Assembly (NCBI GenBank): GCA_020631855.1
Contig: JACKGU010000001.1
Span: 103,601 to 167,600, forward strand
Direction: 5' to 3'
Length of the DNA: 64,000 nt
Source of the DNA: Candidatus Nomurabacteria bacterium
GTDB lineage: Bacteria; Patescibacteriota; WWE3; UBA101185; UBA10185
The position numbers were made by a program, and so were the translations under genes. This document shows positions 11,107 through 47,154 of the stretch, one piece after another. The notes below the pieces were generated by a model, which worked only from the letters and a program-made list of their open reading frames with translations, had not been told where the DNA came from and did not search any database. The stretch's first letter is position 1, and every line of letters starts with the position of its first letter.

Positions 11107-11122
11107 TTTTTCAAACCTTTTT

Positions 11123-26559: not shown

Positions 26560-26591
26560 CAAACCTATAACACTGTGGTAATATTTGAACA

Positions 26592-29572: not shown

Positions 29573-29688
29573 TTTCGTTACTTGAAACTACTTGTGCAAG
29601 CTAGTAGATGTGGTTTATCCAACATGTTGGGCTTTGCAATGCAAAGAAATTACAGCAAACCGCCTGCATAAGGTGTTGGTGATTTATA
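29567..29688 (+). repeat. Intergenic roughly 125 bp repeat element, copy D (its 5' end overlaps the TAA stop)
   Basis: TTTATAATTTCGTTACTTGAAACTACTTGTGCAAGCTAGTAGATGTGGTTTATCCAACATGTTGGGCTTTGCAATGCAAAG... Confidence 0.75.
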
Positions 29689-29743
29689 GATTCGGCAATG
29701 TTCGTTTGTATTAAACAGCTCTCTTTTTTGCTATCATTGTTTT

Positions 29744-31126
29744 ATGAAGGTTTTATTTGTTACTTCTGAGGTTGCTCCAATAAGAAAATTCGGTGGTTTA
29801 GGAGATTTTTCCGCGTCATTGCCCAAAGCCCTGTCGGGTTTGGGGGTCGCTGTCGATATAATCTTTCCTTACTATGCTGAAAATAAGTTAGAGAATTATG
29901 TTGTGACTAAACTGATTGAACTGCAGGTACCTTATAACAATAAAAGTCATACTATCCCATTCTATTGCATAAAACTTAATAGCGACTTGAGGGTTCTAAT
30001 GCCCAAAATAACCCACTCAAACTTGCCGGTAGATAATTATTCCGATGTAGAATTTTTCTCTTTTTTTAATAGGTGCGTGGTTGAATACATTAAAAGTCAG
30101 TACAATACGTACAATGTCGTTCATTGCAATGATTGGCATGCGGGTTTTGTTACGCATATTTTGGAGCAAGAATTGGGGCATGACAGGCCCAAGACTCTTT
30201 TAACGATTCATAATTTTGGCTATCAGGGTGTTTTTGATCCTGTAATTGTCATGGAGATGGGACTGACGCCCGGTGAGCATCCCTTAGTCGATTGGGACAT
30301 ATCTGACGGGGATGTTAACATGCTTTTACAGGGTATTGGTTCTAGTGATTTTGTTAACACGGTGTCGCCGTCTTATGCGTCAGAGCTCATGGAGCAGCAG
30401 GAGGTTGCAGATAGTCCTCAAATTATTCAAGTACTTTTAGGAAGAAAAGATAGATTTAAAGGTATATTAAACGGAATTGATTATACTCAGCTGCCGAGAA
30501 GTTTTTCTGCGCAAGATTTCAAAAAGCATAAGAGCGAGACGAAGAGGATGTTGCAGGAGAAGTTTAAACTTGATTTAAAAGAACAGGCACCTCTTTTTTC
30601 TTTTATCTCTAGATTAGATCCGGGGCAAAAAGGTTTAGACATTCTTTTCGAAAGTGTTAAGACAATAGATGCTATAGAGGGACAGTTTATTTTATTAGGA
30701 ACAGGGGACAAGGCGTGGGAAAAGAAGTTTTCCGACATACTGTCACATAATATGTCTGTTAATATCACTTTTGACGTTGAGTTAGCAAACGCTATTTATT
30801 CTGCCAGCGATTTCTTTTTTGTGCCTTCTAAGTATGAGCCTTGTGGTTTGACTCAGATGATGGCCATGTGGTACGGTGCGCTGCCGATAGTGCACAATGT
30901 TGGGGGCCTAAAAGATACTGTGGTTGATGGAAAGAACGGTTTTGTTTTTGATGACTATTCTTCGAAAGCTCTCTCCGAAGCAATTATAAGAGCCTCCGAA
31001 GTTTATAAGAATAGACCCGTACTGGACGAGATGATCAAGTCCGCCATGTTAGCAGATTTTAGCTGGAAGATAAGCGCTTTGGAGTATAAACGGTTGTATG
31101 AAGATTTGGTAAGAGGTACTATTTAA
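29744..31126 (+). CDS. glgA: Glycogen/starch synthase (GT5), second paralog
   Basis: 'MKVLFVTSEVAPIRKFGGLGDF' and the C-terminal 'GGLKDTV' are present. Confidence 0.75.
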   Translation: MKVLFVTSEVAPIRKFGGLGDFSASLPKALSGLGVAVDIIFPYYAENKLENYVVTKLIELQVPYNNKSHTIPFYCIKLNSDLRVLMPKITHSNLPVDNYSDVEFFSFFNRCVVEYIKSQYNTYNVVHCNDWHAGFVTHILEQELGHDRPKTLLTIHNFGYQGVFDPVIVMEMGLTPGEHPLVDWDISDGDVNMLLQGIGSSDFVNTVSPSYASELMEQQEVADSPQIIQVLLGRKDRFKGILNGIDYTQLPRSFSAQDFKKHKSETKRMLQEKFKLDLKEQAPLFSFISRLDPGQKGLDILFESVKTIDAIEGQFILLGTGDKAWEKKFSDILSHNMSVNITFDVELANAIYSASDFFFVPSKYEPCGLTQMMAMWYGALPIVHNVGGLKDTVVDGKNGFVFDDYSSKALSEAIIRASEVYKNRPVLDEMIKSAMLADFSWKISALEYKRLYEDLVRGTI

Positions 31127-32118: not shown

Positions 32119-32181
32119 GGGACTACGGGCGTTTGGATTTTTCCTCAGCCACTTTTTTCTCACGGTTTGGTATTTGTGTTT

Positions 32182-32305
32182 TTATAATTTAGTTACTTAA
32201 AACTACTCGCGTAAGCTGGTAGGTGTAGTTTACCCAACATGTTGGGCTTTGCAGCGTAAAGAAGTTACAGCAAACCTCCTGCGTCAGCTAGTGGTGGTTT
32301 ATTGG
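32182..32305 (+). repeat. Intergenic roughly 125 bp repeat element, copy E
   Basis: TTTATAATTTAGTTACTTAAAACTACTCGCGTAAGCTGGTAGGTGTAGTTTACCCAACATGTTGGGCTTTGCAGCGTAAAG... Confidence 0.75.
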
Positions 32306-32386
32306 ATAGTTTTAAAAGGTTTGGATAATGAAGGCACCCCGCTTTGCGGGGTGCCTCGGAAACATTCCTAAAGTTCTAGTTCTAGT

Positions 32387-32788
32387 TTATTTAAGTTCAA
32401 CCTTTGCTCCTGCTTCTTCCAGCTTCTTCTTAGCGGCTTCAGCGTCTTCTTTCTTTGCCCCTTCCAACAATGCTTTAGGAGCTGACTCTACTAATTCCTT
32501 TGCTTCTACTAATCCCAATGATTGGTTGACTTCTCGAACTGCTTTAATTACAGCAATTTTATTTGAACCTGCGTCTGCAATTATGACATCAAATTCTGTT
32601 TGTTCATCTCCTGGTGCTTCAGCTACAGCTCCCGCCGCAGGCATTGAGCCCATGACCATAGGTGCCGCTGCAGTAATTCCAAACTTTTCTTCCATAGCTT
32701 TTACGAGTTCGTTAAGCTCTACAATGGTCATTTGTTCTACCATTTCTAGTACTTTTTCTGCGTTTTTACTTAGTGTTACTTCTGACAT
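32387..32788 (-). CDS. rplL: 50S ribosomal protein L7/L12
   Basis: The Ala/Glu-rich hinge and the C-terminal '[21 protein letters not shown]...[14 protein letters not shown]' are present. Confidence 0.9.
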
Positions 32789-32880
32789 AGATCTACACCT
32801 CCTTAATAAATTACAATTTCTATATTCTTAATTACGTGCCTTAGCACATAGGGTTTTTGGATAATTCCAAGAACCTGCAA

Positions 32881-33426
32881 TCAAGCCTCTTTCTTAGAAG
32901 CAAGTTGTGAAACTGCATAAATAAATTTTCTTTGTACTCCAGAAGTTGCTCCGGCAAAGCCTTGAAGAGGGGATTTTAATCCCCAAATCAGCTTGCTTAA
33001 AAGCTCTTCTCTGCTAGGTAATGAGTTTAGTTCTGTTAGTTCGTTGGCGGTTAAAAACTTGCCTTCAACAAACCCCGATTTTACTACCGGAAGAGAATTT
33101 TCTTGAGTTTTTATAAAGCCGAATAAGGTTTTAATGCTTGAAATGGCATCTGCGAAGCCGAATATTGTCATGGTACCGTCTTTAAGTTCTGTGTCTAGAT
33201 TAGAGTCAGTTAGATTGTTTTCTTTGAGTGCGATCTTCAACAACGTGTTTTTTGCAACAGAAGAAGATGCGTCTACAGCCCTAAGCTTTGATCGTAAGTC
33301 GCTCATTTCAGTAGCTTTTATTCCATGATAGTTTACGAAGACTATCGATTTTGCTTTAGCTACTTTTTCACTCAGGTCTTTTACTGCTTGTTTGTTTTTG
33401 TTATTTGGCATAATTCTTTCTTTCAA
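32881..33426 (-). CDS. rplJ: 50S ribosomal protein L10 (the probable start is at the internal MPNNK)
   Basis: 'VKDLSEKVAKAKSIVFVNYHGIKATEMSDLRSKLR' is present and the gene is adjacent to rplL. Confidence 0.85.
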   Translation of the reverse strand: MKERIMPNNKNKQAVKDLSEKVAKAKSIVFVNYHGIKATEMSDLRSKLRAVDASSSVAKNTLLKIALKENNLTDSNLDTELKDGTMTIFGFADAISSIKTLFGFIKTQENSLPVVKSGFVEGKFLTANELTELNSLPSREELLSKLIWGLKSPLQGFAGATSGVQRKFIYAVSQLASKKEA

Positions 33427-33685
33427 ACTTTATTAGTCAATTAATCTGCAACTGCAAGAGACTTTTAAATCTCAATTAATTTCTGGTTGATCCTTAGCCT
33501 ATAAATAATGCTACACGAGGGTGATAAAAATATTGTTATAAAATTTTATTTGCCTCGGCAAGATTATTAAGCTTTAAGGCCCTTGCTGTCTTAGGTACTA
33601 CATTAGTTTACAATTTTTTTTCTTAGTGTCAAGTATCGCGCACAGTGAGACCAACATTCAGGCAATTTATAGTTGTTGCTTGTGT

Positions 33686-35908
33686 TTAGTTAGTCTCGGT
33701 CGTAGGAACTTTATCAAGCTCTATGGAGGGATCTAATACAGGATCCTTCAAAGGCTCTTGAAGAGTAACTTGTGTTTCGTTGTTTGGCCCCGGCTCTTGG
33801 GTTGTTAGCTCTTCAACCGTTGGCTTCTCATCTGATGTTCCTGCAACTTGTGGTTCTGGGAGCGCTTCTATAGCGGCAACAACCATATTGTAGTCTTCGG
33901 AATCGGGCTGCACCAGTCTCTTGGTAATTTCGTACTCTGTTTTTGCTAGGTCGTATTTTTCAATTTTTTCTAGGGCTTGCGCTAAGTTATAGTGCGCATT
34001 AGCGTAATCTCCTTTTAAGTTAGCCGCTTGTCTAAAAAGATTTGCTGCTTCAAGATATTTTTCTTGAGAAAAGTAGACATTGCCTAAATCCAGCCTTAGT
34101 CTCGGGCTGTTTGGATCCAGCCTGATGGCATTTTCATAAGCCTGAATTGTCAAAGTATCGGCATCTTTAGCCACACTAAGCAGTTGTTTAAAGATTGTTG
34201 CTCTTAGTTCCCAAGAATTTGCGTTAAGAGGGTCTAAGACTTCGGTGCTGGTTTTTACCTGGTTTACGGCTTCGGTAATCGCATTCTGAATGATGGAGCT
34301 TTCTTCCTCGGTCGGCTCTTCCTGCGCGGACATGTTTTGAGCTATCAACATGTTGGTTTGTGCATAAGCATTTCGATATTCTGCTCTTGTAGGAGCATAG
34401 GAAATGGCCTTCTGCTGATATAGGTACATTTTTACACCATCTCCTTGCGCAAAGGCCTTTATAGAACCTGCGAAGTAATATTCTGCAGCATAGGCCCTGT
34501 AAAATAGAATTGATCCCAGCAAGGCTACGGCTAGCACCGGTATAGCAGCAAACACGTGGAAGCTCTTTAGTAGCCCTGTGTTGGTGCCCACATTCTTAGG
34601 GGCTTTTTGGATTGCCGCTATCTTGAGTTCAATAATTTGGGTAATCACTCCGCTATTTTTTACTGCCATTATAGTCGTAAGGGCGGTAAAAAGCATTAGC
34701 ATGAAGCTATTTAAAATATTAGCGTAAGTAAAAACATACGTAATGGCCATGGCAATCATTAAAGTTGCAACAAGCTTCTCCGTATTCTCATTTGCGGCTA
34801 AAATCGACTCTGTCCCTGCCTTAATAGTTCTTTGGGCTATAAATATAAAGGCTATCACCCCGGCTATACCTAGTGTCGCCATAAGGTTATACACTTCATT
34901 GTAAGGCTTATCCATCCTGATATTCCAAAGGTTGGTGTTGTTTATGTAAACGGGCCTGTATCTTGTGTAATTTAAGTTGTACGTTGCCGGACCTGTACCT
35001 AAAACAGGGAAGTCTGTGATGGTTTTAGATGCTACAACCCACGAAGACATTCCATCAGACTTAAGATCTTTTGGAAAATCGGGTTTAGCAAGAAGCTCTT
35101 TTGTATTTGGGCTCATCATGCCAATTGTCAATACTATTGCCACTAATGTTCCCGGAAGAACGGCTTTAAAGACCATTTTTGTTTTTGCTCTGCTAGTTAT
35201 TAAGAGAATTAACAAAGATCCTACAGCAAGAAATGCCCATGCCGAGAGTATATTAAATAAAACCAGGAGAGCGAGGTTAACAGCTATTGTTAGCATTGTC
35301 AGTAGTTTAATCGGCAGTAACTTAATTGAGGGATATATGCCGGCTGAAAATACTACTGCAAAAGCAGCGAGAATGGCGCTGTTTGAAGTTGAACCTGCAA
35401 ACTGAGTACCATAAGGAACTCTTAGTGAGGTCAGAACGTTCAGATCAAAATAAGCTAAGAGCGCAGTTAAGGTGCTAATCGTGGTGCCGATAAGTAAGAA
35501 AATAAGAGTTTGGACGACCTCCTGTTTTGTCATATCAGTAAGTACAAGAGCATAGTAGCAGAGAGCGGTTACAAGTATGCCTAGCAAGCTCGGAAACCAA
35601 CGTCCGTAGTTTCCGTAGATGCTGGCAGTCTTGCTGATGGAAAAAAAAGACGCCAAAGCGAACACAACTATGAAGAAAAGTATGGCCGGATTAAGTGACG
35701 ATTTTATAAAGTTTACGTTTTTTGTGTATAGGATTTTAAAAGCTGTCACAAAAAGAAGAAACAATGTAAAGGATATCAATAGTGCCTGCTTGTTATACTC
35801 GAAATAATCCGAAGTTATCGGCAGGAAAAATAGTGGCATCATTAATGCCACAAAAGAAGTTACTGAGGTTATTAGTTTATCAAAAAGCTTAGCAGGTCTT
35901 TCATTCAT
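33686..35908 (-). CDS. Polytopic membrane protein (O-antigen ligase/Wzy-like region) with C-terminal TPR repeats
   Basis: It has at least 10 predicted transmembrane helices, followed by TPR-like 'AYENAIRLDPNSPRLRLDLGNVYFSQEKYLEAANLFRQAANL..YANAHYNLAQALEKIEKYDLA'. Confidence 0.45.
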   Translation of the reverse strand: MNERPAKLFDKLITSVTSFVALMMPLFFLPITSDYFEYNKQALLISFTLFLLFVTAFKILYTKNVNFIKSSLNPAILFFIVVFALASFFSISKTASIYGNYGRWFPSLLGILVTALCYYALVLTDMTKQEVVQTLIFLLIGTTISTLTALLAYFDLNVLTSLRVPYGTQFAGSTSNSAILAAFAVVFSAGIYPSIKLLPIKLLTMLTIAVNLALLVLFNILSAWAFLAVGSLLILLITSRAKTKMVFKAVLPGTLVAIVLTIGMMSPNTKELLAKPDFPKDLKSDGMSSWVVASKTITDFPVLGTGPATYNLNYTRYRPVYINNTNLWNIRMDKPYNEVYNLMATLGIAGVIAFIFIAQRTIKAGTESILAANENTEKLVATLMIAMAITYVFTYANILNSFMLMLFTALTTIMAVKNSGVITQIIELKIAAIQKAPKNVGTNTGLLKSFHVFAAIPVLAVALLGSILFYRAYAAEYYFAGSIKAFAQGDGVKMYLYQQKAISYAPTRAEYRNAYAQTNMLIAQNMSAQEEPTEEESSIIQNAITEAVNQVKTSTEVLDPLNANSWELRATIFKQLLSVAKDADTLTIQAYENAIRLDPNSPRLRLDLGNVYFSQEKYLEAANLFRQAANLKGDYANAHYNLAQALEKIEKYDLAKTEYEITKRLVQPDSEDYNMVVAAIEALPEPQVAGTSDEKPTVEELTTQEPGPNNETQVTLQEPLKDPVLDPSIELDKVPTTETN

Positions 35909-35983
35909 GTATTAATGGTATTACTATTTAAGTCTGATTGTCAAACGAATGTTTCCCTTTATGGTAAATATTGCTGTGTAGCT

Positions 35984-38900
35984 TTATTTTATGGTTATAA
36001 TCCACCAATCAAATTCTATATCTTCTGTTACCGGACTGTTGGTTTTAACAATAAAGTATTCTTTTTCAGCCTTTTCATATACGTATAGCACCTCGTTATA
36101 GGTATTGCTAGTTGGTGTTATTATGACCTTGGAGTTGGCATCTATTGATTTTGTTTCTATTTTTACCTCGGTACTTTCGGCTTTCAAGACCCCACTGCCG
36201 ACATAGTCGCTGTCTTTATCAAATACAAGCTCTGAAGTTTTGATTTGTGCCGCTTCAACCTCTCCCTCAATACGAACTGTTCCATCTGCTTCAAATAGAA
36301 TAGCGCCGTCCATAAAATCTATGTTTCCGGACAGATTCTTTTGGAAGTATATGGTTTGTAGTTCACATAGTTCTTCATTTAGGCTACCTGTTGCTTTGGT
36401 GTAACATGAAGGTCCAATAACACTAAGCTCGTTTGTTAGAGACTCAAGTCTAATGCTTCCAACTTGAAGATCTTTGGTAATTGTTAAACCACCAAGTGTT
36501 GTATCTCCTGTAACTAGGAAGTTTGCATCAAGGGTCATTGTTGTAGTACTGTCTTGAGTTTGAGTAGTAAGTCCAAGAGCTTCTGCGAATCCTTTAAAGG
36601 ATTCATATGTATCTTTAAGCTCTTGAATCTTGGAATCAATGTATGTGGTATCTTCAGGTGTGACTTCGATTGTATTAGTTTGAGTTAGATTGGTTTGAGT
36701 TTCCGTATCAACTTCAAGCTGTGCTAATTGTTCTTGCAGATCCTCGATCTTCTGCTCTTGTTCTTGGATACCTTTAATAAGGTAGGGGACTAGATGGTGG
36801 TATTCAATTGACCATGTGTTTGCGGGATCATCAGGTTTATCAACTACCTGCGGTAGATACTCATATACATCTTGAGCAATAAGCCCTGTTGCTCTTCCTC
36901 TATCTGCCCATTTTGTTCCTTCTTTCCAATCAAAATCAACAACTTCAAAACGATTAATTAATTCAAGTGCATTAAGATTTGATGTTTCAATATTATCTTT
37001 AAGTCTTCTATCTGATGCTGTAACGTTAATAGAAGCATTACCGATATACATAGTAGTTGAACCTGAACCATTTGACGAGTCATCAAGTAGATTAGCATCG
37101 ACCGCGTTACCTATATGAAAGCCTCCTCCTGCATATACAATATCTCCGACATCTAAGAAATCTCTAAAGTAGCTATAGCCGTTTGAAACTCCAACATGAA
37201 ACACTTCATCATAGATATCTCTAACCACAAAACTCTTACCTGATGTTCCTCCTGCATCAAGACGTAAATATCCATCTCCGCTACCGAAGCTTTCTGTATA
37301 GAGAGAGGTGCTCTTGCCGTAGCTGTCTTCCAGCTCAAGGTTTCCGACAACATGAAGCTCAGAGCCGGGGGTTGTTGTACCGATTCCAACGCGGTCTGTG
37401 CCTGCGTTGACATAAAAAAGAGCCGAGTTTGAGGACCCTCGAATGTTGAAATCGATATCCGTAGCCGCGGGATTAACATACATTATATCTGAGGTCCCTT
37501 CTGAAAGCCTTAGAAAAGCTGCTCCTCCTGCTACCACATCAAGCTGATCATCAGTAAAAGATAGGTAGGTATTAGCGTCCCCATTATGATATATGTACTG
37601 ATCTAAGCCTATATCTCCGGCAACATCAAGTGCGTAGTCTGGGGCGGAGGTTCCTGCACCTATTCTTCCGTTCGCGGCTACCGCGCTTAAAACTGTCCCG
37701 CCGGTGTCTTTCCACTCTTGAAGGTTCGAAGACTGGCTCGTAATACCTTTTACTGTCAAAGGCACGCCGGCTGAGTTTTGAGAGTGAATTGTCAATCCTG
37801 CTCCCGCACCTGAAAATAGTCCGTAGATTAAAGGAGTAGTTGTGCTTGAGTTTGCAATATATAGGGTATTTGAACCTCCCTCGTTATATCCTGCTTCATA
37901 TCCTAAGAATACGTTTGAACTTCCGTTTAACGAATAGCCGGCTCTTGATCCAACAATTGTGTTATAGTCAAGGCCGGTTCGAACTGTAAAATTCGCATAT
38001 CCGGCCATATAGCCCAAAAACGCATTCCTAGTTCCGCCAATTCGAGATCCAGACATTGCTCCTATTGATGTGTTTCCTGACTCTGTAGTATTGCCCAAAA
38101 ATACATAGCTTCCCACCCCGACATTACTGCCTCCGGAGGTATTTGCGGTAAAATTACTTGTTCCTATAACATTATTGCTACTTCCAGAAATGTTATTTTG
38201 AAGTGCGCCATTTCCTATTGCTACATTTGCAATTGCAGTTGTAGAGTAGAGCATTGCGTTCATTCCAATTGCGGTATTGTTATATCCTACGGTGAGGTTA
38301 GATAGTGTGGCTGCTCCAATAGCCGTGTTGCCACCAGCATTACCGTCAGGGTTTCTACCGTCGAGGTTATATAGGGCAGAGTGACCAATTGCAACATTAT
38401 TGATGCTGTATTTTGCTTTCTGCAATGTTCCGTACCCTATGGCAACGTTTTGAACACCGGTTTCGTTTGCATAGAGAGAAGCTCCTCCGATAGCAACATT
38501 GTACCCGGTGCCCGCATAGCTCATGCTTGCTAGAGAGCCGGAACCGATAGCTACATTTCTACTAGTCGAGACGGCGCTTCTAAGGGCGCTGTCACCCAAG
38601 GCAACATTTCCCGAGCTTGCTAGGCCTAGGTATTGCAGTGCGTTTGTTCCAAAAGCAAAGGCACCGTTCAGAGATCTTTGTTCGTTGACAATTGTTCCTG
38701 TGTCATCAAGCAGCACCACCGCTGCAGAGTTTTTAGTCACTAGTTTTACAGATACGTTATCTATTGATCCGTCGAAATCAGATGAGGGGGTAAATACAAG
38801 CCCGCCGCTTGCTCCTGCAGTAATAACCGGTGCAAAATTATTATTTGAATCATATGTAGTTAAATTTGGTGATTGTGCGCCATTTACTTTCACTCTTACT

Positions 38901-41900
38901 GTACCCGCAGTCATGTTTTTTATTTGAAACTGAACAACATACACAGATCCGTTTGAAAAAGAAATGGCCTGGCTGAGGTCGGCCGTTGCTCCGGCTGTAT
39001 GGGTAGCATATCCTGAAGCATTCCATGCCCAGTTTGTACCATATGTCCAATCGGAAGATGTTGCAAAGTCGCCGTTGGTTACCATTTCTGATCCAGGGGC
39101 AGTAATTGCCGACTTGCCCCTGAACGTAGATATGCCGGTATCAGAATCAACTGAAAAATAGTTTACGGCGGAACTATTTTGTACAGCTAAAGTTTTTGTA
39201 AATAGGCCTGCCCCATCTTTGCTAATACTGGCGAGTACTGTACCCCCGTTATTCTGCCACTCTTGCAAGTTAACGCTTTGCCCCGAAGCCCCTTTTACAA
39301 GAAGCCCTTTGCGAGCTGAGGTGGGGGATTCAATTTTTACTTGCGTTCCCGCATCTATGCTTGCGGTTCCGAAGGTAGAAACAGCTCCGCTGACAGTAAA
39401 ATAAGTCGAGTTGATATTTGTATAGGTAGCTTCTAGCGTGAGTTGCCCAGTGCCGTTCCTATATAAAAATGTATCAGACCCTAGAGCAATGCCTCCGGTT
39501 GCGGTAGTGTGGTTTGCAATTTCAAGTGCATGTGTTGCCGAGGTTGTTCCAATTCCAATATTACCGCTAGCATCGATAATGAAAGGAGTAGTGTCTGATC
39601 CTACATCGTTAACTCTAAAACTGTTTCCTGTACCTGTGTTGGTTATTGAAAATTCCTCACTACCATCTACTGCGATATCTGTACTTGCGTCAAGAGCCAT
39701 AGCATCTTTAAATTCAGTGAAGTCAAGAGAATCTGCAGTTATTGCTGTTGCTCCTATTGTACCTCCACTTAGTACGCCGGAAGAGGATGTCACTACCCCA
39801 TCAGATAATCCACTAAACGTTATTGTTCCGCTACTCGTGATACCTGCTGCCGCTATTATCTGCCCACTGCTATTTACCTGAAACAGATCTCCATTGCCTA
39901 CTGTTAATGCTGATGCGGGAGAGGTGTCCCCGATGCCGACTTTACCTGTTATTGTCATATTTGCAAGATATCCCCCTGAGTTTAGAACTCTTATATAACT
40001 GTCAGCATCATTTCTCCAAGCGTCAAGACCCAGCTCTGTCCTTGTTGCTCTAAATGTGCTTGTGCTTGAATCTCGAACAATAGAAGTAGCCTTACCGTTT
40101 ACGGTGTCAAAAAAGAATCTAACAGTACCTCCGTTGTCTCCTGCAATCTCGAGAGGATAGCTAGGGCTTGTTGTCCCAATCCCCACATTGCCGTTGTCTA
40201 AAATTACTACCTCACTTGTAGTATCGCCGTCAGGATCAAAGCCAAGATAATTACTGGTAGTGTTATATCCCAGGATAGCTTCATTGCCAGTATCACCAAT
40301 ATGAATACTCGATCCTTTTACAAATAATTCAGTCCAGCGAGAACTTGATGAACCAAGACTACTCACACCATCAGCCGCAGGCAAGAAATCATCAGAAGCA
40401 ATTAAGTCAGAACCGTTCCATCTAAGATATTCAGTCGCACCGTTTCCAAAATAGAGATAATTAGCCAACTCAATATCACCGGCCACGTCCAGTAGCTGGC
40501 CGGGACTGGCTGTTCCTATACCTACATTGCCCGAAGAATTTATGACCATTCTTTGTGTTCCAGAGGTTGTTGTGTTATTGGCAGCTGTAGTAAAGATAAT
40601 ATCTGTTGCAGCATTTAACAAAGAAGTGCCTCCGCCAAAATTTATAACATTTGTAGAAGTCCCGGACCCAGCATTAAAAATAGCAAATGGTTCTTCAGCG
40701 TTATTGTAGTGAGCAATTCCAAGTCGGGCATTTTTTGAAGTCGCGTCTGTTCTTGTTGTATATAAATTATCTGCCCCCAGTAAGAGTGAAACTGAACCGT
40801 TTGATATATCGAGTCCTGCACTAGGGGTATTCGTACTAATACCTACAAGGCCGGCAGTATCTATAAATAGTCTTTGAGTTCCATCTGTAAGTAAGGCAAG
40901 GCTTCGGGCCGACCCACCGCCGGAGCCTTTTGAAGTTCCAACACTCAACACATTCGAGCTCCAATAAAAATCACCACGTTCGTATGAGGTTCCCGAGGAG
41001 TAGGTATTATAGATTCGGAAGGACTGCGCATTTGTAGAGTTTCGAAGTGAAATGTTGTTTGCACCGTCGGAAAGTAAAAATGCACTAGGCCCTGTTGTGG
41101 AATTAAACCCAAGAGCATAGCCGGCTTGTATTGCTAACGCCGCAGTGGCATTGTTGATGCCTAGTAAATCGGCACCGGATTTTGAAAAGAATATTGCCGA
41201 CCCGCTTTGTCTCATACCTATTCCGGTTGCATTTCCAAAAGATAATGACGGGGCCGCTGCGGTTCCATCAGGCAGCAAAAGTTGCCCTGATGCTAGCTCC
41301 AAAGTACCCCCCGGCGTTGCGGTTCCAATGCCAACTCGGTGTGTGCTTGAATCAACATATAAATCATTTGTGTTTACTGTAAAGTCTCCGGTTCCGGAAA
41401 GTCCGATGTTGAAGTTACTCCCGCCCGCAGGATTAAAAGTTATCGCGCCGGTTGTTTGAGTAAAGGTTGTTGAGGCACCGTCAAGCGTGACACTAGTGCT
41501 TGCAATATTTAAGGCGCCGTCTACATTAAGATCTCCCGCTATAGTTAAAGTATTTCCGGACTCATAGGTGTCGTTTGCGTTTGATCTCAAAAAATCACTC
41601 CCGGCAAAAGATCCCAGCTGGTCAGCCGTTTTAGCATTAAATGCGTAAGGGACAGCTGCTAAAGTTTTTCTTGGAGAAAAGGTTTCTCCTTCTGAAAAGT
41701 CTCCGTTACCGCTAGGATCAAATTCAACCTCAATAAATAAAGATCCGCTGGTAAAATCAGGTCCCCCGTTCTGGTTACAGCTTGAGAAAGTTCCTCCGCA
41801 ATCTAGTTCTAATGTGAATACGTCGCCGAAGTCATCAAGCTCGACATCCGATTTTGTTTCTTGCCACACAAGTGTTCCTCCAGAAGAGGAAGTATATATG

Positions 41901-42163
41901 CTGACTCTAAAGTCGCATGTATCTGCGCCGCTTGTATTAATACAAGCGGCGTCCGAACTTGTTAAATTTGTGCCATCAGGGTTAACGATTTTTCCCTGGT
42001 AAACTAGGGCCTCGTTAATTGCAGCAAAAACTTTATGCCCAAAATTATTTAGATGATTGATAAGTAATAAAATAAAGAGTAAAGCCACAAATCTTGCAAC
42101 AGGCTTAGCCAAGCCCTTAGTTGCAAGTACTATGCGTTTGTAGGCAGTAGTTGTTAAGTTCAA
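35984..42163 (-). CDS. Giant (2059 aa) secreted/anchored fibre protein resembling a phage tail fibre, with GIGTxxP collar motifs, Gly/Asn-rich beta-helix repeats and a C-terminal peptidase-S74 intramolecular-chaperone domain
   Basis: An N-terminal signal-anchor is present. The collar motifs recur (RVGIGTATPGGTLELA, NVGIGTASPGQLLDVAGD, NVGIGTTSPSYPLEIAGD, RVGIGTTTPGSELHVVGN). The repeats are 'NVAIG..SL / NTAIG' type. The C-terminus carries 'SDRRLKDNIE...IEYHHLVPYLIKGIQEQEQKIEDLQ', which is the CIMCD cleavage/chaperone signature. Confidence 0.75.
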   Translation of the reverse strand: MNLTTTAYKRIVLATKGLAKPVARFVALLFILLLINHLNNFGHKVFAAINEALVYQGKIVNPDGTNLTSSDAACINTSGADTCDFRVSIYTSSSGGTLVWQETKSDVELDDFGDVFTLELDCGGTFSSCNQNGGPDFTSGSLFIEVEFDPSGNGDFSEGETFSPRKTLAAVPYAFNAKTADQLGSFAGSDFLRSNANDTYESGNTLTIAGDLNVDGALNIASTSVTLDGASTTFTQTTGAITFNPAGGSNFNIGLSGTGDFTVNTNDLYVDSSTHRVGIGTATPGGTLELASGQLLLPDGTAAAPSLSFGNATGIGMRQSGSAIFFSKSGADLLGINNATAALAIQAGYALGFNSTTGPSAFLLSDGANNISLRNSTNAQSFRIYNTYSSGTSYERGDFYWSSNVLSVGTSKGSGGGSARSLALLTDGTQRLFIDTAGLVGISTNTPSAGLDISNGSVSLLLGADNLYTTRTDATSKNARLGIAHYNNAEEPFAIFNAGSGTSTNVINFGGGTSLLNAATDIIFTTAANNTTTSGTQRMVINSSGNVGIGTASPGQLLDVAGDIELANYLYFGNGATEYLRWNGSDLIASDDFLPAADGVSSLGSSSSRWTELFVKGSSIHIGDTGNEAILGYNTTSNYLGFDPDGDTTSEVVILDNGNVGIGTTSPSYPLEIAGDNGGTVRFFFDTVNGKATSIVRDSSTSTFRATRTELGLDAWRNDADSYIRVLNSGGYLANMTITGKVGIGDTSPASALTVGNGDLFQVNSSGQIIAAAGITSSGTITFSGLSDGVVTSSSGVLSGGTIGATAITADSLDFTEFKDAMALDASTDIAVDGSEEFSITNTGTGNSFRVNDVGSDTTPFIIDASGNIGIGTTSATHALEIANHTTATGGIALGSDTFLYRNGTGQLTLEATYTNINSTYFTVSGAVSTFGTASIDAGTQVKIESPTSARKGLLVKGASGQSVNLQEWQNNGGTVLASISKDGAGLFTKTLAVQNSSAVNYFSVDSDTGISTFRGKSAITAPGSEMVTNGDFATSSDWTYGTNWAWNASGYATHTAGATADLSQAISFSNGSVYVVQFQIKNMTAGTVRVKVNGAQSPNLTTYDSNNNFAPVITAGASGGLVFTPSSDFDGSIDNVSVKLVTKNSAAVVLLDDTGTIVNEQRSLNGAFAFGTNALQYLGLASSGNVALGDSALRSAVSTSRNVAIGSGSLASMSYAGTGYNVAIGGASLYANETGVQNVAIGYGTLQKAKYSINNVAIGHSALYNLDGRNPDGNAGGNTAIGAATLSNLTVGYNNTAIGMNAMLYSTTAIANVAIGNGALQNNISGSSNNVIGTSNFTANTSGGSNVGVGSYVFLGNTTESGNTSIGAMSGSRIGGTRNAFLGYMAGYANFTVRTGLDYNTIVGSRAGYSLNGSSNVFLGYEAGYNEGGSNTLYIANSSTTTPLIYGLFSGAGAGLTIHSQNSAGVPLTVKGITSQSSNLQEWKDTGGTVLSAVAANGRIGAGTSAPDYALDVAGDIGLDQYIYHNGDANTYLSFTDDQLDVVAGGAAFLRLSEGTSDIMYVNPAATDIDFNIRGSSNSALFYVNAGTDRVGIGTTTPGSELHVVGNLELEDSYGKSTSLYTESFGSGDGYLRLDAGGTSGKSFVVRDIYDEVFHVGVSNGYSYFRDFLDVGDIVYAGGGFHIGNAVDANLLDDSSNGSGSTTMYIGNASINVTASDRRLKDNIETSNLNALELINRFEVVDFDWKEGTKWADRGRATGLIAQDVYEYLPQVVDKPDDPANTWSIEYHHLVPYLIKGIQEQEQKIEDLQEQLAQLEVDTETQTNLTQTNTIEVTPEDTTYIDSKIQELKDTYESFKGFAEALGLTTQTQDSTTTMTLDANFLVTGDTTLGGLTITKDLQVGSIRLESLTNELSVIGPSCYTKATGSLNEELCELQTIYFQKNLSGNIDFMDGAILFEADGTVRIEGEVEAAQIKTSELVFDKDSDYVGSGVLKAESTEVKIETKSIDANSKVIITPTSNTYNEVLYVYEKAEKEYFIVKTNSPVTEDIEFDWWIITIK
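36252..37333 (-). repeat. 1082 bp segment 100% identical to 47632..48713 (the shared 3' cassette of the two giant fibre genes, present as direct copies)
   Basis: Base-by-base comparison gives a constant offset of 11380. Identity breaks at 36251/47631 and at 37334/48714. Confidence 0.9.
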
Positions 42164-42225
42164 ATTTTTTCAGTTAGTTTCTTAAATTAACTATTTATAA
42201 GTTTATATTAATCGAATATGGAGTG

Positions 42226-43698
42226 TCAAAGATTTCGCTTGGATTTTGTAAGTTTTTTATATAGCAGGTAGTTGTTAAGATAAATGAAGACAAAGATTAC
42301 TGCCCAGACTATAGGGTCGTAATTTATATGTAAAGTAATGTCTTTGGTATAGAAAATATGTTTTTGGGTTGCATAGAACAGCTCCCGATGAACCAAAGGG
42401 GAAACCCCCACATCTATTTTATAAAGCCCCTGTTCAAATAGTAGGCTGTAGTCACCGTTCTTTGAAGTAAGTATGGGCGTTCCTTCAAAAAAATTAGTTG
42501 GCGTATAAGAATTCCAGACGTCTTTTTCATAATCGTATTGGTATAAACTTAGTCTGGCGTTTTTTACCGGACCGTCCTTAACCACCTTAGCTGTTATTAA
42601 AGCATTCGCGAACCGCCCCACGTGTTTAACTTTTATTAGCCCTAGTTTATCTAGAACAATAGGGATTTTCACTGTTTGAGGCTTGTTTGTGTTTTTAAGT
42701 TTAATCAAAATCAAGAGCTCGGAATATTTTTCTGTTGGCTTGATTTTGAAATATATGTTTTTATTTTTTGAATAGTAGTCGGAGGTGCCGTAAAGCAACG
42801 TGTATTCCTGTACTTCTTTTGGAAACATGAGGTTAAATCCTATTTCTGTCTCAGGTACTGTGTAGACTGGATATCCGTTTTCTCTAAAGAATAGCTCGTA
42901 GGGTATCCCTTCGACATCCACGTCGATTCTTATGTTTATGTCGTCTTTCGGATCTAGCGGATTGGTGCTATTTTCGATCTCGTCTCCATCTCTTATGCCG
43001 CCGCCGTCAGTGTCCGGGAGCAGGGGACTGGTGCTATACACTTTGACTTCCCGGAAATCGTTTAGCCTGTCATTGTCGGTATCTTTATAAAATGCGTTTG
43101 TTTTATATATTATTATTTCTTCATAATCATCTAGCCCGTCGTTATCGGTATCGCGATTTTTTGGATTTGTGTAGTATATAAATAATTCGTCGTAGTCATT
43201 TAATCCGTCCCCGTCTGTGTCTATATTGTAAGGATTAGTGCCAAAATATTTTTCGCTTATGTTGGGAACTCCATCTCCGTCGCTGTCAGCTCTGGGATCG
43301 GTGCCGGCCTTGTTGTCTTGCTTCTTATTATCATTGTCTGTTCCTTTGTTTACGCCTTCATAGTCGTCTGATGGGTCTAATGGGTTTTTGCCCTGACTTA
43401 TTTCCAAGCCATCCATTAGGCCCCCGCCATCTGTATCGGGATTAATCGGACTTGTTGTATAGCCATATTCCTGCAGGTTTAGCAATCCGTCATTGTCATT
43501 GTCAAGTGTAGCATCGCCCCCATCCCCGGGGTCTAGCCCATACAAGATTTCCCATGTATTGGGCATTCCGTCTTGGTCGTTATCATTTGAAACCTCAAGC
43601 GTTACTGTAGTTTGCTGTACTGTATCGGCAAAAGCCGGACTTAAGTGCGCCCAGTAAAGTCTAAGCATAGCGATAAGAAATATTAGGCAGTATGTCAT
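42226..43698 (-). CDS. Secreted protein with thrombospondin type-3-like Ca-binding repeats (DxDxDG), a beta-sandwich region and a C-terminal transmembrane anchor
   Basis: Repeated 'DTDGDGLNDYDE', 'DTDNDGLDDYEE', 'DSDGDGVPN' and 'DTDGGGIRDGDE' motifs are present. The C-terminal hydrophobic 'IVWAVIFVFIYL' is followed by a basic tail. Confidence 0.55.
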   Translation of the reverse strand: MTYCLIFLIAMLRLYWAHLSPAFADTVQQTTVTLEVSNDNDQDGMPNTWEILYGLDPGDGGDATLDNDNDGLLNLQEYGYTTSPINPDTDGGGLMDGLEISQGKNPLDPSDDYEGVNKGTDNDNKKQDNKAGTDPRADSDGDGVPNISEKYFGTNPYNIDTDGDGLNDYDELFIYYTNPKNRDTDNDGLDDYEEIIIYKTNAFYKDTDNDRLNDFREVKVYSTSPLLPDTDGGGIRDGDEIENSTNPLDPKDDINIRIDVDVEGIPYELFFRENGYPVYTVPETEIGFNLMFPKEVQEYTLLYGTSDYYSKNKNIYFKIKPTEKYSELLILIKLKNTNKPQTVKIPIVLDKLGLIKVKHVGRFANALITAKVVKDGPVKNARLSLYQYDYEKDVWNSYTPTNFFEGTPILTSKNGDYSLLFEQGLYKIDVGVSPLVHRELFYATQKHIFYTKDITLHINYDPIVWAVIFVFIYLNNYLLYKKLTKSKRNL

Positions 43699-43816
43699 TG
43701 CTATAATAATAATTCACCGAGCTCCTTTAGTCACTATATTCTTATATTTCTGGGGTATCCGCCTTATTTAGAAGAAAAAAATTCATGTAGTAACGAGGAA
43801 GTGCGCTGTATTTAAT

Positions 43817-43938
43817 TTATAATTTCATTACTTAAAACTGCTTGCGTAAGCTAGTAGACGTAGTTTACCTTACATGTTGGGTTTTGCAACGCAAATAAAT
43901 TACAGCAACCCTCCTGTGTGGGCTGGTTGGCTTTAAAA
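43817..43938 (+). repeat. Intergenic roughly 125 bp repeat element, copy F (between two minus-strand genes)
   Basis: TTATAATTTCATTACTTAAAACTGCTTGCGTAAGCTAGTAGACGTAGTTTACCTTACATGTTGGGTTTTGCAACGCAAAT... Confidence 0.7.
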
Positions 43939-43951
43939 AAATAACTTCGTA

Positions 43952-44944
43952 TTAGCTAAGTTTATTCTCTTTTTTAAAGGATAGCGCCGCGCGCCAAAGT
44001 ATAAATAGTGACAGTAGAACGCCAAGCAGTACTGTGAGTAGGAACTTCAAAGGAATTAGCCAAAAAGTAGTATCTGCTTCCATGGTGTTAAGCCTTTCGG
44101 TCGTGCCGTATTTTAGCAATATATTTGCTTGAATTTTTCCCATTGGCGGAACTAAGCCCCTTTTCGTTATTGTTGTTTTTTCTGAAAAGCTTCTATCCGG
44201 TGATTCCGGTAGCATTGTACTTTGGCTTTGATTAAAGATGGTATTAATTGGAGGAAAGAACCTGTTACCCTCAATAAATATTGCTCCGGTGGGTATGATA
44301 TGAACATTTCCTGAGTTTTTAATAGTTGTGGAAAATTCTATTTCAGGATTTTCAACGAAGTAAAATTTTTTATTTGTTTTAAAATCTACAATAGACGCAT
44401 TTTCTTCAATTTCTCCCGGAACAGTAGTTAGTATTAAGCTTGCCACTCTACCTATTGTTCCTACTCTTGAGCCTTCGTTTGCGTCAGGTTTTTCCGATTG
44501 AACAAATATGGCAGCGTAGTGCCCTCCTGTAGTTGCATTTTGCGGAACAGTAATGGTATAAGGTATTTCTATTGTTTCATTATCTTCAAGTTCTACTACG
44601 TCTTGCGCAAATGTGATCCAGGTTCGAAGAGAGTATGTGTTAGAGCCCTCCTCTTCCTGATTTTCTATAAAAGTAGGTGTTCCGTCGTTAGATAGAACTA
44701 AAAAATCTCTTGCGTAAATATATAAAGTTTTTTTAGATCCTGAGTAGTTTCCCAGCCTGAGTTTTTTTTCGTAGGTTTTTCCTTGTTCTATATTAAAGTT
44801 ATTCTTAGCAGGGGACAGTTCTATGTTTAAAGCCTGTGCGTTAGCTGTTTTATATGCGATTGAGGCAAAAGATGCCGAAATAATCACACCGATTAAACAT
44901 GTGAGCAGAAAATCTTTAGACTTAGCTATATCTTTAATATTCAT
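43952..44944 (-). CDS. Cell-surface protein with an N-terminal signal peptide and a C-terminal transmembrane anchor plus short basic tail (architecture reminiscent of DUF916/DUF3324 Gram-positive surface-complex proteins)
   Basis: The N-terminus is 'LLTCLIGVIISASFASIAYKTANA'. The C-terminus is 'FWLIPLKFLLTVLLGVLLSLFILWRAALSFKKENKLS'. Confidence 0.4.
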   Translation of the reverse strand: MNIKDIAKSKDFLLTCLIGVIISASFASIAYKTANAQALNIELSPAKNNFNIEQGKTYEKKLRLGNYSGSKKTLYIYARDFLVLSNDGTPTFIENQEEEGSNTYSLRTWITFAQDVVELEDNETIEIPYTITVPQNATTGGHYAAIFVQSEKPDANEGSRVGTIGRVASLILTTVPGEIEENASIVDFKTNKKFYFVENPEIEFSTTIKNSGNVHIIPTGAIFIEGNRFFPPINTIFNQSQSTMLPESPDRSFSEKTTITKRGLVPPMGKIQANILLKYGTTERLNTMEADTTFWLIPLKFLLTVLLGVLLSLFILWRAALSFKKENKLS

Positions 44945-44965
44945 ATCAAAATCATTTTACGGCAG

Positions 44966-45928
44966 TTAGTTGTTAGTTGCTACAGTAACCGTGACTATTT
45001 GATCGTATTCTCCGGCAACTGTAGTACCGGCAATGCTGGCTTTGTAGGTTAGTGTAAGCGTGGCCGCGTTTACAGCCGCAGTACTGTTAGCAATATTGGT
45101 GGCAGATGTAGGAACAGCATCGTCTCCGGAGTCAAATGGAGATTGCGCTGTCAGCCCCGATACGGCTGTTGATATTCCGTACTCTTCTGATCCTGCGGTC
45201 ACAGTTCCGTCAGCAACGTCGTTTATATCATTGCCGCTGCCATCGTTTAGCGCTGCATCCGCAGATATTTTAAGTTGTACGCCGGTAACGTTATTTGAAT
45301 TTACTGTGTAGGTTTGGGAGGCTGAGCTCACGGCTGTGGTTGTCAAAACCCCTAAATCCATGGTGACGTCATTTACCGCTAGGTTTACAAAAAGAGGCAC
45401 GGAAGCAGTTACAGTAGTAGTGTTAGTATTTGTTTTTATTCCTACACCATAGTCAAGAGAATTATTTGTTGAATCGGTTGTTGTTATAGCAACAGATTGT
45501 TGAGCATAAGTTGTTGAAGTGTAAGATGTAAGTCCGTCAGTCATTGCAACTGTTATGGCTGTAGAACCTGATATAGAAGCATCGAGCGTTATTGTAATTG
45601 TGTTTGCCGTGCTGTTGTTTGATCTGGTTGGTGTAGTTTGGCCTGTAACTGTTATGTTTGTTCCGGAAGCATTTATTGTTGCTTGAGTAGGAAAGGTTAG
45701 AATAATTTTGTCTCCGCTCGATAAAGCTGTTGTGTTGGTGAATACAACAGTAGTAGTTCCGGGGGAAGCAGACTGTGCCCATGTTCCATCGGATATTTTT
45801 GTTGCCGCCTGTACTTTGCCACCAAAAACAATCAGCATTAGTATATTTATATTTATTAAATAAGCAATTAAATAGATGGGAATGGTTTTAGCTAAAGACC
45901 TTTTTGTTAGTATTTTTCGGCAGTTCAT
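44966..45928 (-). CDS. Thr/Ser-rich secreted surface protein with a conserved C-terminal 'KASIAGTTVAGEYDQIVTVTV' strand motif
   Basis: A signal-anchor is present. The composition is roughly 35% Thr/Ser/Ala/Asn. It is paralogous at the C-terminus to the divergently transcribed 46036..47154 gene. Confidence 0.45.
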   Translation of the reverse strand: MNCRKILTKRSLAKTIPIYLIAYLININILMLIVFGGKVQAATKISDGTWAQSASPGTTTVVFTNTTALSSGDKIILTFPTQATINASGTNITVTGQTTPTRSNNSTANTITITLDASISGSTAITVAMTDGLTSYTSTTYAQQSVAITTTDSTNNSLDYGVGIKTNTNTTTVTASVPLFVNLAVNDVTMDLGVLTTTAVSSASQTYTVNSNNVTGVQLKISADAALNDGSGNDINDVADGTVTAGSEEYGISTAVSGLTAQSPFDSGDDAVPTSATNIANSTAAVNAATLTLTYKASIAGTTVAGEYDQIVTVTVATNN

Positions 45929-46035
45929 GGGCCCTTTCTTATTACGTAGAAAATTAGAACTTTTAGCCTGTAATAATTACATACAATGCTAGAGATTGTT
46001 TTTTGTTTTGTCAAGTTTAATCTATAATAGAGCAT

Positions 46036-47154
46036 ATGCTCGGAAATTATGAAAAATCAAGGACAACTGCTATTACTAATAGAAATGTAATTCAGGACGT
46101 TAACTTTAGCAGGCGGGCTATTGTTTTATCTGTTTTCATTTTTTTATACTTTTTCTTATTAAGTAGTTTCTTATCGATTAGTGCTCAGGTACCCGCAAGC
46201 TCGAGTTTTGTAATTAAGGGTGAAAATGTCTCTCCTTCCGGAGGTGTGGGCTCTACCCCCAATTTCATGTTAAATGCAGATTTAAGCCCTTTCTCTCAAA
46301 GCCCTGCTGATGCCAGCTCATTTAAAGCTTATATAGGTTATAATCCTCGTATACAGGCTAATACACCTTACGAACCAACTCTAGACAATGCTACCGGTCA
46401 ATACTACGATAGGTTACTACTTACCATTGACCCTTCGGGAAACCCCACAGATACTCTTTTTGCTGTTGCGATATCGGCAAACTCCTGGAGTACCACATAC
46501 TATGTACAAAACGATAACACTCTAGCATTGTCTTTAGGCCCTGAGGATTACAGAACTTATGCGGGTTGGGGAGGATCGGGAGGCACCCTGATCTTAGGGC
46601 TGAGCCCTTCCTCTTCTTATGTTGCCAAAGTTAAGGCCTTGAACGGTGATTTCACTGAGACTTTATATGGCCCGGAATCTTCTGCTGTAGAAACAGTGGT
46701 GCCTTTTATTAGTTTGTCTGTTTCTTCTTCTGTTTCGGAATTTGGGGTTTTAAGTGCAAATGAAATTAAATCGGCCTCTTCTGTCGATCTTTCTGTTACT
46801 ACAAACGCGGAGTCAGGTTATTCTCTCTCGGTAAATGGTACGGGCAGCGGTGTTCAGCCCGGACTGTACAATGGGGTGGGTAATGTCATAGTTTCTCAAG
46901 ATACTGTTCTTTCAGTTGGTACAGAAGGTTACGGAGCTCAGGGCTCCTCAGGTACTGCAACGATTTCTTCCAAATACGATTTAGCTGGTGACTTTGTAGG
47001 CAGCTTGGATCTATCTCCTCAGGAGCTTGCCTCCAACTCTGTGCCGGTTTCTGGTGATAGTTCTACCATAACTTTCAAAGCTTCAATTTCCGGAAATACC
47101 GTTGCCGGAGAGTATGAAGACATTGTTTATTTCACTATCTCCCCATCTTTATAA
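46036..47154 (+). CDS. Thr/Ser-rich secreted surface protein, a paralog of 44966..45928 (C-terminal 'KASISGNTVAGEYEDIVYFTI')
   Basis: An N-terminal transmembrane or signal sequence and the shared C-terminal motif are present. Confidence 0.45.
   Translation: MLGNYEKSRTTAITNRNVIQDVNFSRRAIVLSVFIFLYFFLLSSFLSISAQVPASSSFVIKGENVSPSGGVGSTPNFMLNADLSPFSQSPADASSFKAYIGYNPRIQANTPYEPTLDNATGQYYDRLLLTIDPSGNPTDTLFAVAISANSWSTTYYVQNDNTLALSLGPEDYRTYAGWGGSGGTLILGLSPSSSYVAKVKALNGDFTETLYGPESSAVETVVPFISLSVSSSVSEFGVLSANEIKSASSVDLSVTTNAESGYSLSVNGTGSGVQPGLYNGVGNVIVSQDTVLSVGTEGYGAQGSSGTATISSKYDLAGDFVGSLDLSPQELASNSVPVSGDSSTITFKASISGNTVAGEYEDIVYFTISPSL

Follow-up and report, generated by a model that had tools for sequence, protein, structure and literature searches.

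In a 64,000-nucleotide stretch of the genome of a Candidatus Nomurabacteria bacterium (assembly GCA_020631855.1, contig JACKGU010000001.1, positions 103,601 to 167,600), referred to here as the window, we have compared two giant genes, p1 and p2, that encode fibre proteins with a Peptidase_S74 chaperone domain; the two genes share a block of 1,082 nucleotides (nt), "the cassette", without a single mismatch, while the tails that follow it are saturated at the third codon positions. The best explanation, to which we assign a probability of roughly 0.75, is that the cassette has recently been homogenised between p1 and p2 by gene conversion or recombination, in agreement with the original prediction, which had been made from the letters of the sequence. 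The two genes and the two copies of the cassette are:

35984-42163, minus strand: p1, giant fibre gene, 2,059 residues, TTG start (open reading frame, Pfam S74, motifs, hydropathy).
47364-52937, minus strand: p2, giant fibre gene, 1,857 residues (MerR/HTH_17 match, transmembrane helix, 17-residue repeat array, S74).
36252-37333, minus strand: cassette copy 1, p1 codons 1611-1971, maximal exact match to copy 2.
47632-48713, minus strand: cassette copy 2, p2 codons 1409-1769, maximal exact match to copy 1.

The repeat is exact: the two copies are identical base for base over 1,082 nt, with 0 mismatches, and the bases that adjoin the block differ at both of its ends. The copies are offset by 11,380 bp and, since both lie in minus-strand open reading frames, they are direct repeats. 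Beyond the cassette, the identity at this offset falls on both sides to a background of about 25% within 100-200 nt, so that chance is no issue for a match of 1,082 nt. The cassette starts at the first position of codon 1611 of p1 and of codon 1409 of p2, and ends within codons 1971 and 1769, respectively; none of its 360 codons differs (0/360), and 88 diverged codons follow in both genes. The block itself, as well as its division into about 360 shared and about 85 diverged residues, had been read correctly beforehand, while the genome, then described as low in GC, is only moderately so (39.6% GC in the window). A second short identical stretch reported at the same time has been located as well, i.e. 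the 23-mer GCATCTTTAAATTCAGTGAAGTC at positions 39702 and 51598; as a second conversion tract it has been ruled out, being part of a module that reflects ordinary domain homology:

39544-39724 (p2: 51440-51620), minus strand: module common to p1 and p2, 184-nt match with 68% nucleotide identity, holding the 23-mer.

Our reading is carried by the contrast in age between the cassette and its flanks. The two 88-codon tails align without gaps, with identities of 28-29% for the amino acids, 43% for the nucleotides and 24.7% for the third codon positions, the last value indicating saturation; they are as distant from each other (28%) as they are from the tails of other Patescibacteria (24-38%), while the cassette is 100% identical, and the phylogenetic signal of the cassette is thus incongruent with that of its flanks. 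Outside the cassette, no nucleotide similarity has been detected by blastn over the N-terminal 1,400-1,600 residues of the two proteins, except for the 184-nt module. An identical block that includes the synonymous sites and is bounded by homologous, diverged tails is the pattern sought in a test for gene conversion, and 0/360 differing codons within saturated flanks imply that sequence has recently passed between p1 and p2. Purifying selection has been rejected as the cause, given that the synonymous sites are identical too and the flanks are saturated; a recent duplication of the whole gene has also been rejected, given that the rest of the two genes cannot be aligned at the DNA level.

In the sequence of events that we propose, p1 and p2 would have started as anciently diverged paralogues; homologous recombination (gene conversion) would then, in recent time, have overwritten the 1,082-bp tract of one gene, from just behind the capping loop to the linker in front of the terminal domain, with that of the other, and this copying would have wiped out all the differences within the tract, while the N-terminal stalks and the terminal domains would have kept their ancient divergence. 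We infer that the copying was non-reciprocal, with one of the two genes as the donor. Homogenisation of the cassette is a real but fairly ordinary event, of the kind known as concerted evolution.

Several points weigh against this reading. The present flanks hold no extended nucleotide homology in which a conversion could have been started or resolved, and the first event may therefore have been a swap of modules at domain borders, rather than a classical conversion; the databases hold no diverged sister strain that would show concerted evolution directly; the base identity of the hybrid assembly rests on a short-read consensus, so that one or two real differences between the copies are possible; and the G+C content at the third codon positions (GC3) of the cassette, 0.247, is the lowest of 188 coding windows of 1,080 nt (gene mean 0.347, standard deviation 0.034), which could mean that both genes have received a recent foreign import.

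The alternative that survives best, although we consider it unlikely, is active switching, in which the cassettes would recombine appreciably in populations and give rise to chimeric fibres, deletion, tandem amplification or an 11.38-kb circle. Direct repeats of 1 kb are good substrates for RecA, and the 90% cluster of p1 contains a protein, P0070, that follows p1 through the end of the cassette and continues with the tail of p2, i.e. the predicted chimera. P0070 is encoded by contig L006 (Ga0116244_10007866, JGI 3300010350), which is 11,403 bp long, is 100% identical to the window and contains the 11,380-bp repeat unit in circularly permuted form, its ends overlapping by 23 nt. A crossover between the cassettes would yield just such a molecule, whether excised as a circle or spanning the internal junction of a tandem duplication; but it is also the trivial de Bruijn cycle of the arrangement A-R-B-R-C (with the cassette as R) once the A-R and R-C junction edges have dropped out. 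Several observations argue against switching, drawn in part from independent short-read contigs that were retrieved by exact-protein look-up of the flanking genes. Contig L026, from another dataset, is a graph cycle with an overlap of 141 nt, equal to k, and in the same assembly the A-side contig, L018, stops 119 nt inside R; contig L033 holds the parental p2 phase across the cassette; and another JGI contig has, like L006, its first base at 43213, a coincidence that suggests a recurring graph break rather than a random start on a circle. No reciprocal chimera is recorded, p2 being alone in its 90% cluster, and the excised circle would carry no evident replication gene. A high-copy circle or an amplification is unsupported by the coverage of the repeat unit in the SPAdes assembly ERZ795048 (4.77, compared with 4.35 for the flank). 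The contigs from at least nine datasets are 99.98-100% identical and have the same boundaries, representing essentially one clone, with L006/P0070 as the one, ambiguous, chimeric contig; the shuffling that had been predicted as ongoing is, accordingly, not demonstrated. Through the two direct repeats, the 11.4-kb unit may now be deleted, as had been foreseen, or duplicated, but never inverted, although inversion had been foreseen as well; were the cassettes to cross over, the four intervening genes would be lost or doubled along with the N-terminal part of p1 and the tail of p2.

A recent horizontal import of a foreign S74 cassette, from a phage or another bacterium, in place of the original 3' ends of p1 and p2 is, in our judgement, very improbable. 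It would account for the low GC3 of the cassette, which drops to 0.127 in the S74 core (36842-37015), and the nearest relatives differ between the S74 core, which is closest to a protein on contig L008 (67%), and the module downstream of S74, which is closest to proteins P0001, P0074 and P0075 (41-42%), so that modules do move. Against it, IMG/VR holds no viral relative, no near-identical donor is found among 5.8 billion proteins, an import into both genes would still need copying within the genome, and the position of the fibre gene is conserved in other Patescibacteria, which favours vertical inheritance of the whole gene. By protein search, the closest outside relative is 41% identical, while L008 reaches 67% over the S74 core only; in close relatives, nothing above 41% has been found that would place the cassette on other stalks (protein search; genome, metagenome and viral scans), with the exception of L008. 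In the latter (Ga0209211_10122689, positions 25-1044), the 67% identical S74 core is followed by a different downstream region, rich in Pro, Thr, Ser and Glu, which indicates that the S74 core and the module downstream of it are separately exchangeable.

The window belongs to a metagenome-assembled genome (MAG), HK-STAS-PATE-45, with 6 contigs and 913,459 bp (GTDB class WWE3, order UBA10185; Liu et al. 2021, PMC8518188), and in hybrid workflows multi-mapping short reads correct the repeats and can erase differences between copies. For the source assembly, metaFlye was run on Nanopore reads with a minimum length of 1 kb, and a hybrid assembly with Illumina reads was then made for each bin (PMC8518188); the window is contained in JACKGT010000005.1 (520,029 bp) of GCA_020631805.1, and identical p1 and p2 are present in a second NCBI record, probably the sister MAG PATE-46, so that two MAGs agree. 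Short-read assemblies from at least six other datasets stop at exactly the cassette edges, with two left and two right flanks; the breaking datasets are JGI 3300010350, ERZ27248703, ERZ27257475, ERZ795048 and several SRR14234xxx runs, assembled with MEGAHIT, SPAdes or Logan. On the side of the p1 tail, the Logan contigs enter the cassette by 30 nt (k = 31) and JGI 3300010350 enters it by 119 nt, while on the N-side of p2 the contigs enter it by 141, 119 and 55 nt (MEGAHIT k141 and SPAdes k55 assemblies), the depth of the breaks being exactly k; the non-repeated unit that separates the copies has been recovered on its own at 10,580 bp (10,298 + 2 x 141) and at 10,408 bp (10,298 + 2 x 55), as contigs L028 and L029. 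Contigs L026, on the p1 side, and L033, which crosses the cassette in the parental p2 phase, carry an identical cassette sequence, and no contig has a single-nucleotide polymorphism (SNP) inside the cassette, while population SNPs are seen outside it. Four flanks that join one block in many independent datasets show that the duplication is no artefact, and the idea that the assembler or the polishing produced the duplication, or its perfect identity, is hardly credible and, for the duplication, largely refuted; the refutation that the original prediction had itself proposed, by long reads, has thus been largely answered. The only population SNPs across the datasets are located at 45337 (T/C, three assemblies), 39796 and 35508, and the organism is otherwise clonal across the NCBI, Logan SRA, JGI and ENA datasets.

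The ends of both genes contain the same parts in the same order: a capping loop, a tip of approximately 106 residues, the S74 domain, a coiled coil, a beta module with a pair of cysteines, and a terminal beta-sandwich. The respective features are:

37334-37391 (p2: 48714-48771), minus strand: last capping-loop motif VGIGTTTPGSELHV, in the 58 nt at the upstream edge, 40/58 identical.
37016-37333 (p2: 48396-48713), minus strand: pre-cleavage fibre tip, p1 residues 1611-1716, identical in both genes, low AlphaFold2 confidence.
36842-37015 (p2: 48222-48395), minus strand: Peptidase_S74 chaperone core, p1 residues 1717-1774, with the codon of Ser1717 at 37013-37015.
36578-36802 (p2: 47958-48182), minus strand: long helical or coiled-coil segment, p1 residues 1788-1862, AlphaFold2 helices 228-269 and 276-302.
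36254-36577, minus strand: beta module after the coiled coil, with cysteines C1920 and C1933 of p1, within the cassette; member of a 988-cluster family.
35984-36251, minus strand: variable terminal beta-sandwich of p1, 88 residues and stop, K1-lyase_C-like, ending in FDWWIITIK, AlphaFold2 pLDDT above 90.
47364-47631, minus strand: variable terminal domain of p2, 88 residues and stop, ending in FNWWVLKSE, from alignment to the p1 tail and relatives.

The S74 domain and its SDRRLKDNIE motif are located inside the cassette, as predicted, while the last collar motif (VGIGTTxPxxEL), which had been counted as part of the block, is located outside it, in the 58 nt directly upstream; the blastn match between the two genes extends to 1,140 nt with 18 mismatches, all of them in this 58-nt upstream edge. 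Both proteins match Peptidase_S74 (PF13884) with 50.7 bits (cut-off 22), and SDRRLK occupies residues 1717-1722 of p1 (Ser1717, Lys1722) and 1515-1520 of p2 (Ser1515); in 69 homologues, the S, D and K of the S-D-x-x-x-K motif, as it is defined for S74 domains in PMC10769870, are each at least 90% conserved. We have modelled residues 1561-2059 of p1 (499 residues) with AlphaFold2, and the model is confident (pLDDT above 90) for the S74 domain and the last approximately 75 residues. The best Foldseek match of the S74 part is the ICA domain of MyRF (7dc3; probability 1.0, TMt 0.67, root-mean-square deviation 2.5 A), and the K1F chaperone (3gw6) is matched as well; phmmer against the PDB retrieves the tail fibre 8jov and, via the motif RVGIGTTTPGSELHV, also the Bdellovibrio MAT structure 8ojn. 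Motifs of this type are described as the capping-loop motif of S74 fibres, V-G-G/N-pi-x-x-P-x-x-x-L (Caulton et al. 2024, PMC10769870), and their repetition, which characterises MAT fibres, is found in p1 and p2 at the level of the sequence, while for the trimeric beta-helix AlphaFold2 gives no confident model.

The identity of the beta module to P0001 and P0002 amounts to 42-50% and extends to the GPxCY...LC motif; the two cysteines of the module are the only cysteines of p2. The terminal domain matches the C-terminal domains of the tailspikes 7eea and 7w1c in Foldseek, and has a weak Pfam match to K1-lyase_C (PF24146), with near-threshold matches in relatives. The distance from the catalytic serine to the end of the protein is 343 residues in both p1 and p2; going by the motif, autocleavage of S74 at Ser1717 and Ser1515 would free a C-terminal fragment of 343 residues and leave the same distal tip on both fibres. 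By analogy with Bd3182 and the phage S74 fibres (PMC10769870), it is the pre-cleavage tip of approximately 106 residues that would stay on the mature fibre. A division into a variable receptor part and a constant C-terminus, which the original prediction had assumed, is therefore not established, since the shared part includes this pre-cleavage tip, which is exposed in the S74 fibres of phages and Bdellovibrio. The C-side edge of the cassette falls in a linker of low AlphaFold2 confidence (model residues 408-413) and the N-side edge directly follows the capping loop, so that both edges are located at module borders; this is the pattern expected if a conversion runs to the end of the homology, or if only recombinants at the borders survive.

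NCBI names both proteins 'tail fiber domain-containing protein [Candidatus Nomurabacteria bacterium]'. Hydropathy places a signal or anchor helix at approximately residues 22-36 of p1, and both proteins are anchored by an N-terminal transmembrane (TM) helix; p1 has seven capping-loop motifs and p2 has three. Promoter-like sites are located upstream of p2 (52984-53012) and of p1 (42200-42229), and both genes are full-length reading frames with their own start. No YadA-type beta-barrel anchor, as found in type Vc trimeric autotransporters, appears in the Pfam scans of p1 and p2, the C-terminus of which consists of S74 and the post-S74 module. The identification of both genes as S74-type fibre genes has been borne out, and p1 and p2 are probably old, highly diverged paralogues that encode giant membrane-anchored surface fibres, presumably trimeric. 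The N-terminal and stalk features of p2 are:

52743-52886, minus strand: MerR / HTH_17 domain, residues 18-65 (Pfam MerR 30.4 bits, cut-off 28.2; HTH_17 27.0 bits, cut-off 27).
52464-52526, minus strand: TM helix, residues ~138-158, by hydropathy.
49227-51239, minus strand: stalk of about 40 tandem repeats of 51 nt (17 residues, ...NTTGxxNxAxGxxALxS), from repeat families spaced in multiples of 51.

The N-terminus of p2 suggests a cytoplasmic helix-turn-helix (HTH) domain fused to a giant surface protein. A word-based search has returned no homologues of this N-terminus; the HTH family has been recovered via the C-terminal module instead. The post-S74 module (p1 residues 1815-2059) is represented by 988 clusters (50% identity) at E values up to 1e-3, and by 42 clusters at up to 1e-30, and its matches invariably lie at the very C-terminus, in chains as long as 7,185 residues. 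A MerR-type HTH N-terminus like that of p2 occurs in 20 of the 82 family members with at least 500 residues (up to 7,185 residues); Pfam confirms it in p2, P0004, P0075, P0084, P0098, P0148 and P0123, and P0004, P0075 and P0084 combine HTH and TM as p2 does. Some of the HTH-bearing members contain S74, while in others it is undetected. The combined idea that p2 represents an undescribed class of HTH fibres and that the locus is a working variation system of an episymbiont, in which crossovers swap terminal domains or amplify and delete the 11.4-kb unit and L006 is real, is a long shot.

The closest known systems, by their workings and partly by family membership, are the S74-type MAT fibres of Bdellovibrio and the tail fibres of phages. 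The S74 subgroup of the Bdellovibrio bacteriovorus MATs (e.g. Bd3182; PMC10769870, to which the following comparisons refer) likewise consists of long, cell-encoded surface fibres with capping-loop repeats and an SDxxxK S74 domain, made by cells that likewise attach to other bacteria, and their paralogues are likewise mosaic; but S74 ends the MAT proteins, whereas p1 and p2 run approximately 200 residues further, through the coiled coil, the cysteine-bearing beta module and the beta-sandwich. All 21 MATs have a beta-rich domain of approximately 130 residues after the signal peptide, whereas the N-terminus is a plain anchor helix in p1 and consists of HTH and TM in p2, so that p2 probably lacks this characteristic of the MATs; the conserved end of the MATs is the N-terminal one and the C-terminal end is diversified, whereas the shared block of p1 and p2 is near the C-terminus. 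A term search of that paper gives no mention of an identical cassette between MAT paralogues.

The phage chaperone domains (K1F endosialidase 3GW6, T5 L-shaped fibre 4UW8) belong to the same Pfam family as those of p1 and p2 and have the same catalytic motif and fold; phage tail fibres and tailspikes likewise carry the chaperone on unrelated stalks, and the C-termini of 7eea and 7w1c resemble the terminal beta-sandwich of p1 and p2. Unlike phage fibres, p1 and p2 are chromosomal genes beside rplJ-rplL, have no relative in IMG/VR, are 3-4 times longer and are membrane-anchored. Tetart et al. are said to have found in 1998 that the distal tail fibre genes of T-even phages (gp37/gp38) recombine at conserved motifs that bound exchangeable segments; p1 and p2 are likewise motif-bounded, with the N-side edge of the cassette abutting a capping loop, but the T-even exchange swaps an adhesin from phage to phage, whereas here the chaperone and the tip are shared within one genome. 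In MyRF (Ndt80-type domain, S74/ICA and TM), as in p2, a DNA-binding domain, a TM helix and S74 are joined in one chain; the DNA-binding folds are unrelated, and the order differs, p2 having HTH, TM, ectodomain and S74, so that cleavage at S74 cannot release the predicted HTH.

The vomp genes of Bartonella quintana (PMC10936683) are likewise tandem, direct paralogues for trimeric adhesins with highly conserved blocks; recombination between these blocks deletes genes and alters the surface repertoire, and deletions occur in vivo (PMC10936683). The vomp products are of type Vc with a beta-barrel, and their deletion variants are documented (PMC10936683), whereas p1 and p2 have no YadA anchor, their block is the S74 cassette, and no such variants are documented. 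The cassette systems pilE/pilS, vlsE and MgPar have silent, promoterless donors that supply a single expression site, whereas p1 and p2 are both full-length genes and only two copies have been seen; since both copies are complete genes, the system is not of the pilS/vls type.

On one side, the neighbours of the locus are the ATP synthase operon and secE-nusG-rplKA; on the other, they are a TPR gene, the L10 leader and rplJ-rplL, and the surroundings are free of phage genes. In BMS3Abin15 a TPR gene comes after a homologous fibre gene, and in a Saccharimonadales MAG the fibre homologue has a giant LamG gene behind it, with rplJ-rplL next in line, from which we conclude that the position of the fibre gene is conserved in other Patescibacteria; this synteny has been compared between contigs L035 (GCA_035480775.1) and L036 (GCA_002923195.1) and positions 32881-42163 of the window, L035 ending inside the fibre gene. 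Between p1 and p2 are located:

42226-47154, mixed strands: four genes between the fibre genes, recovered from short reads on a unitig of their own of 10.3 kb (L028, L029).
42226-43698, minus strand: TSP3-repeat protein gene (Pfam).
43952-44944, minus strand: WxLIP_PGBD-like gene, below threshold (23.5 bits, cut-off 27.3).
44966-45928, minus strand: intervening gene.
46036-47154, plus strand: intervening gene.

Contigs L006 and L034 (JGI 3300009772) break at the same base, at a 23-mer (43213-43235) that is unique in the window and lies inside the TSP3-repeat gene; it is there that L006 closes on itself. An intergenic element of approximately 120 nt, beginning with TTTATAATTT, occurs in four plus-strand copies (11122-11241, 32181-32299, 43816-43934 and 47148-47266) that are 81-88% identical; two of the copies are within the 11.4-kb repeat unit, and the element has been seen only in loci of the same species. 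As a structured RNA it has been rejected, with no Rfam match, no fold signal and no covariation. Elsewhere in the window, a plus-strand open reading frame of 167 residues (32328-32831) without a Pfam match overlaps rplL, which, as seen in L011, is encoded on the minus strand, and this reading frame is probably spurious; the tRNA at 19440-19527 (minus strand) scores 47.7 bits as tRNA-Sec in Rfam (threshold 47) and is called tRNA-Ser(tga) by ARAGORN, and is most likely a tRNA-Ser with a long arm. Positions 24949-31126 hold tandem pairs of paralogues, glycogen-synthase-like (Glyco_transf_5) and GH57 genes, near a sortase gene (19804-20526) and a gene for a PEGA-domain protein (20574-21725).

To our knowledge, host recognition and attachment in Patescibacteria are largely unknown beyond type IV pili, and our literature search has found no paper that describes S74-type fibres in this group. 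An ultrasmall WWE3 bacterium with a genome of approximately 0.9 Mb here devotes almost 12 kb to two proteins that resemble phage fibres, the tip and chaperone module of which appears to be kept identical by recombination and belongs to a large family of 988 clusters; p1 and p2 differ from the known S74 fibres in their long post-S74 extension, in their N-terminal anchoring (with HTH in p2) and in the shared block of tip and chaperone. The 1-kb repeat breaks every short-read assembly that we have examined, which means that such genes are systematically truncated in MAG catalogues, and a cycle that such a repeat produces in the assembly graph can be mistaken for a circular element or a chimeric gene. 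The most interesting lead is the family of HTH-anchored giant fibres: if the reading of its N-terminus is true, p2 would represent an undescribed class of giant fibre, one that binds DNA while tethered to the membrane and that carries a kilobase-scale ectodomain matured by S74, and a fibre of this type could couple contact with the host to gene expression.

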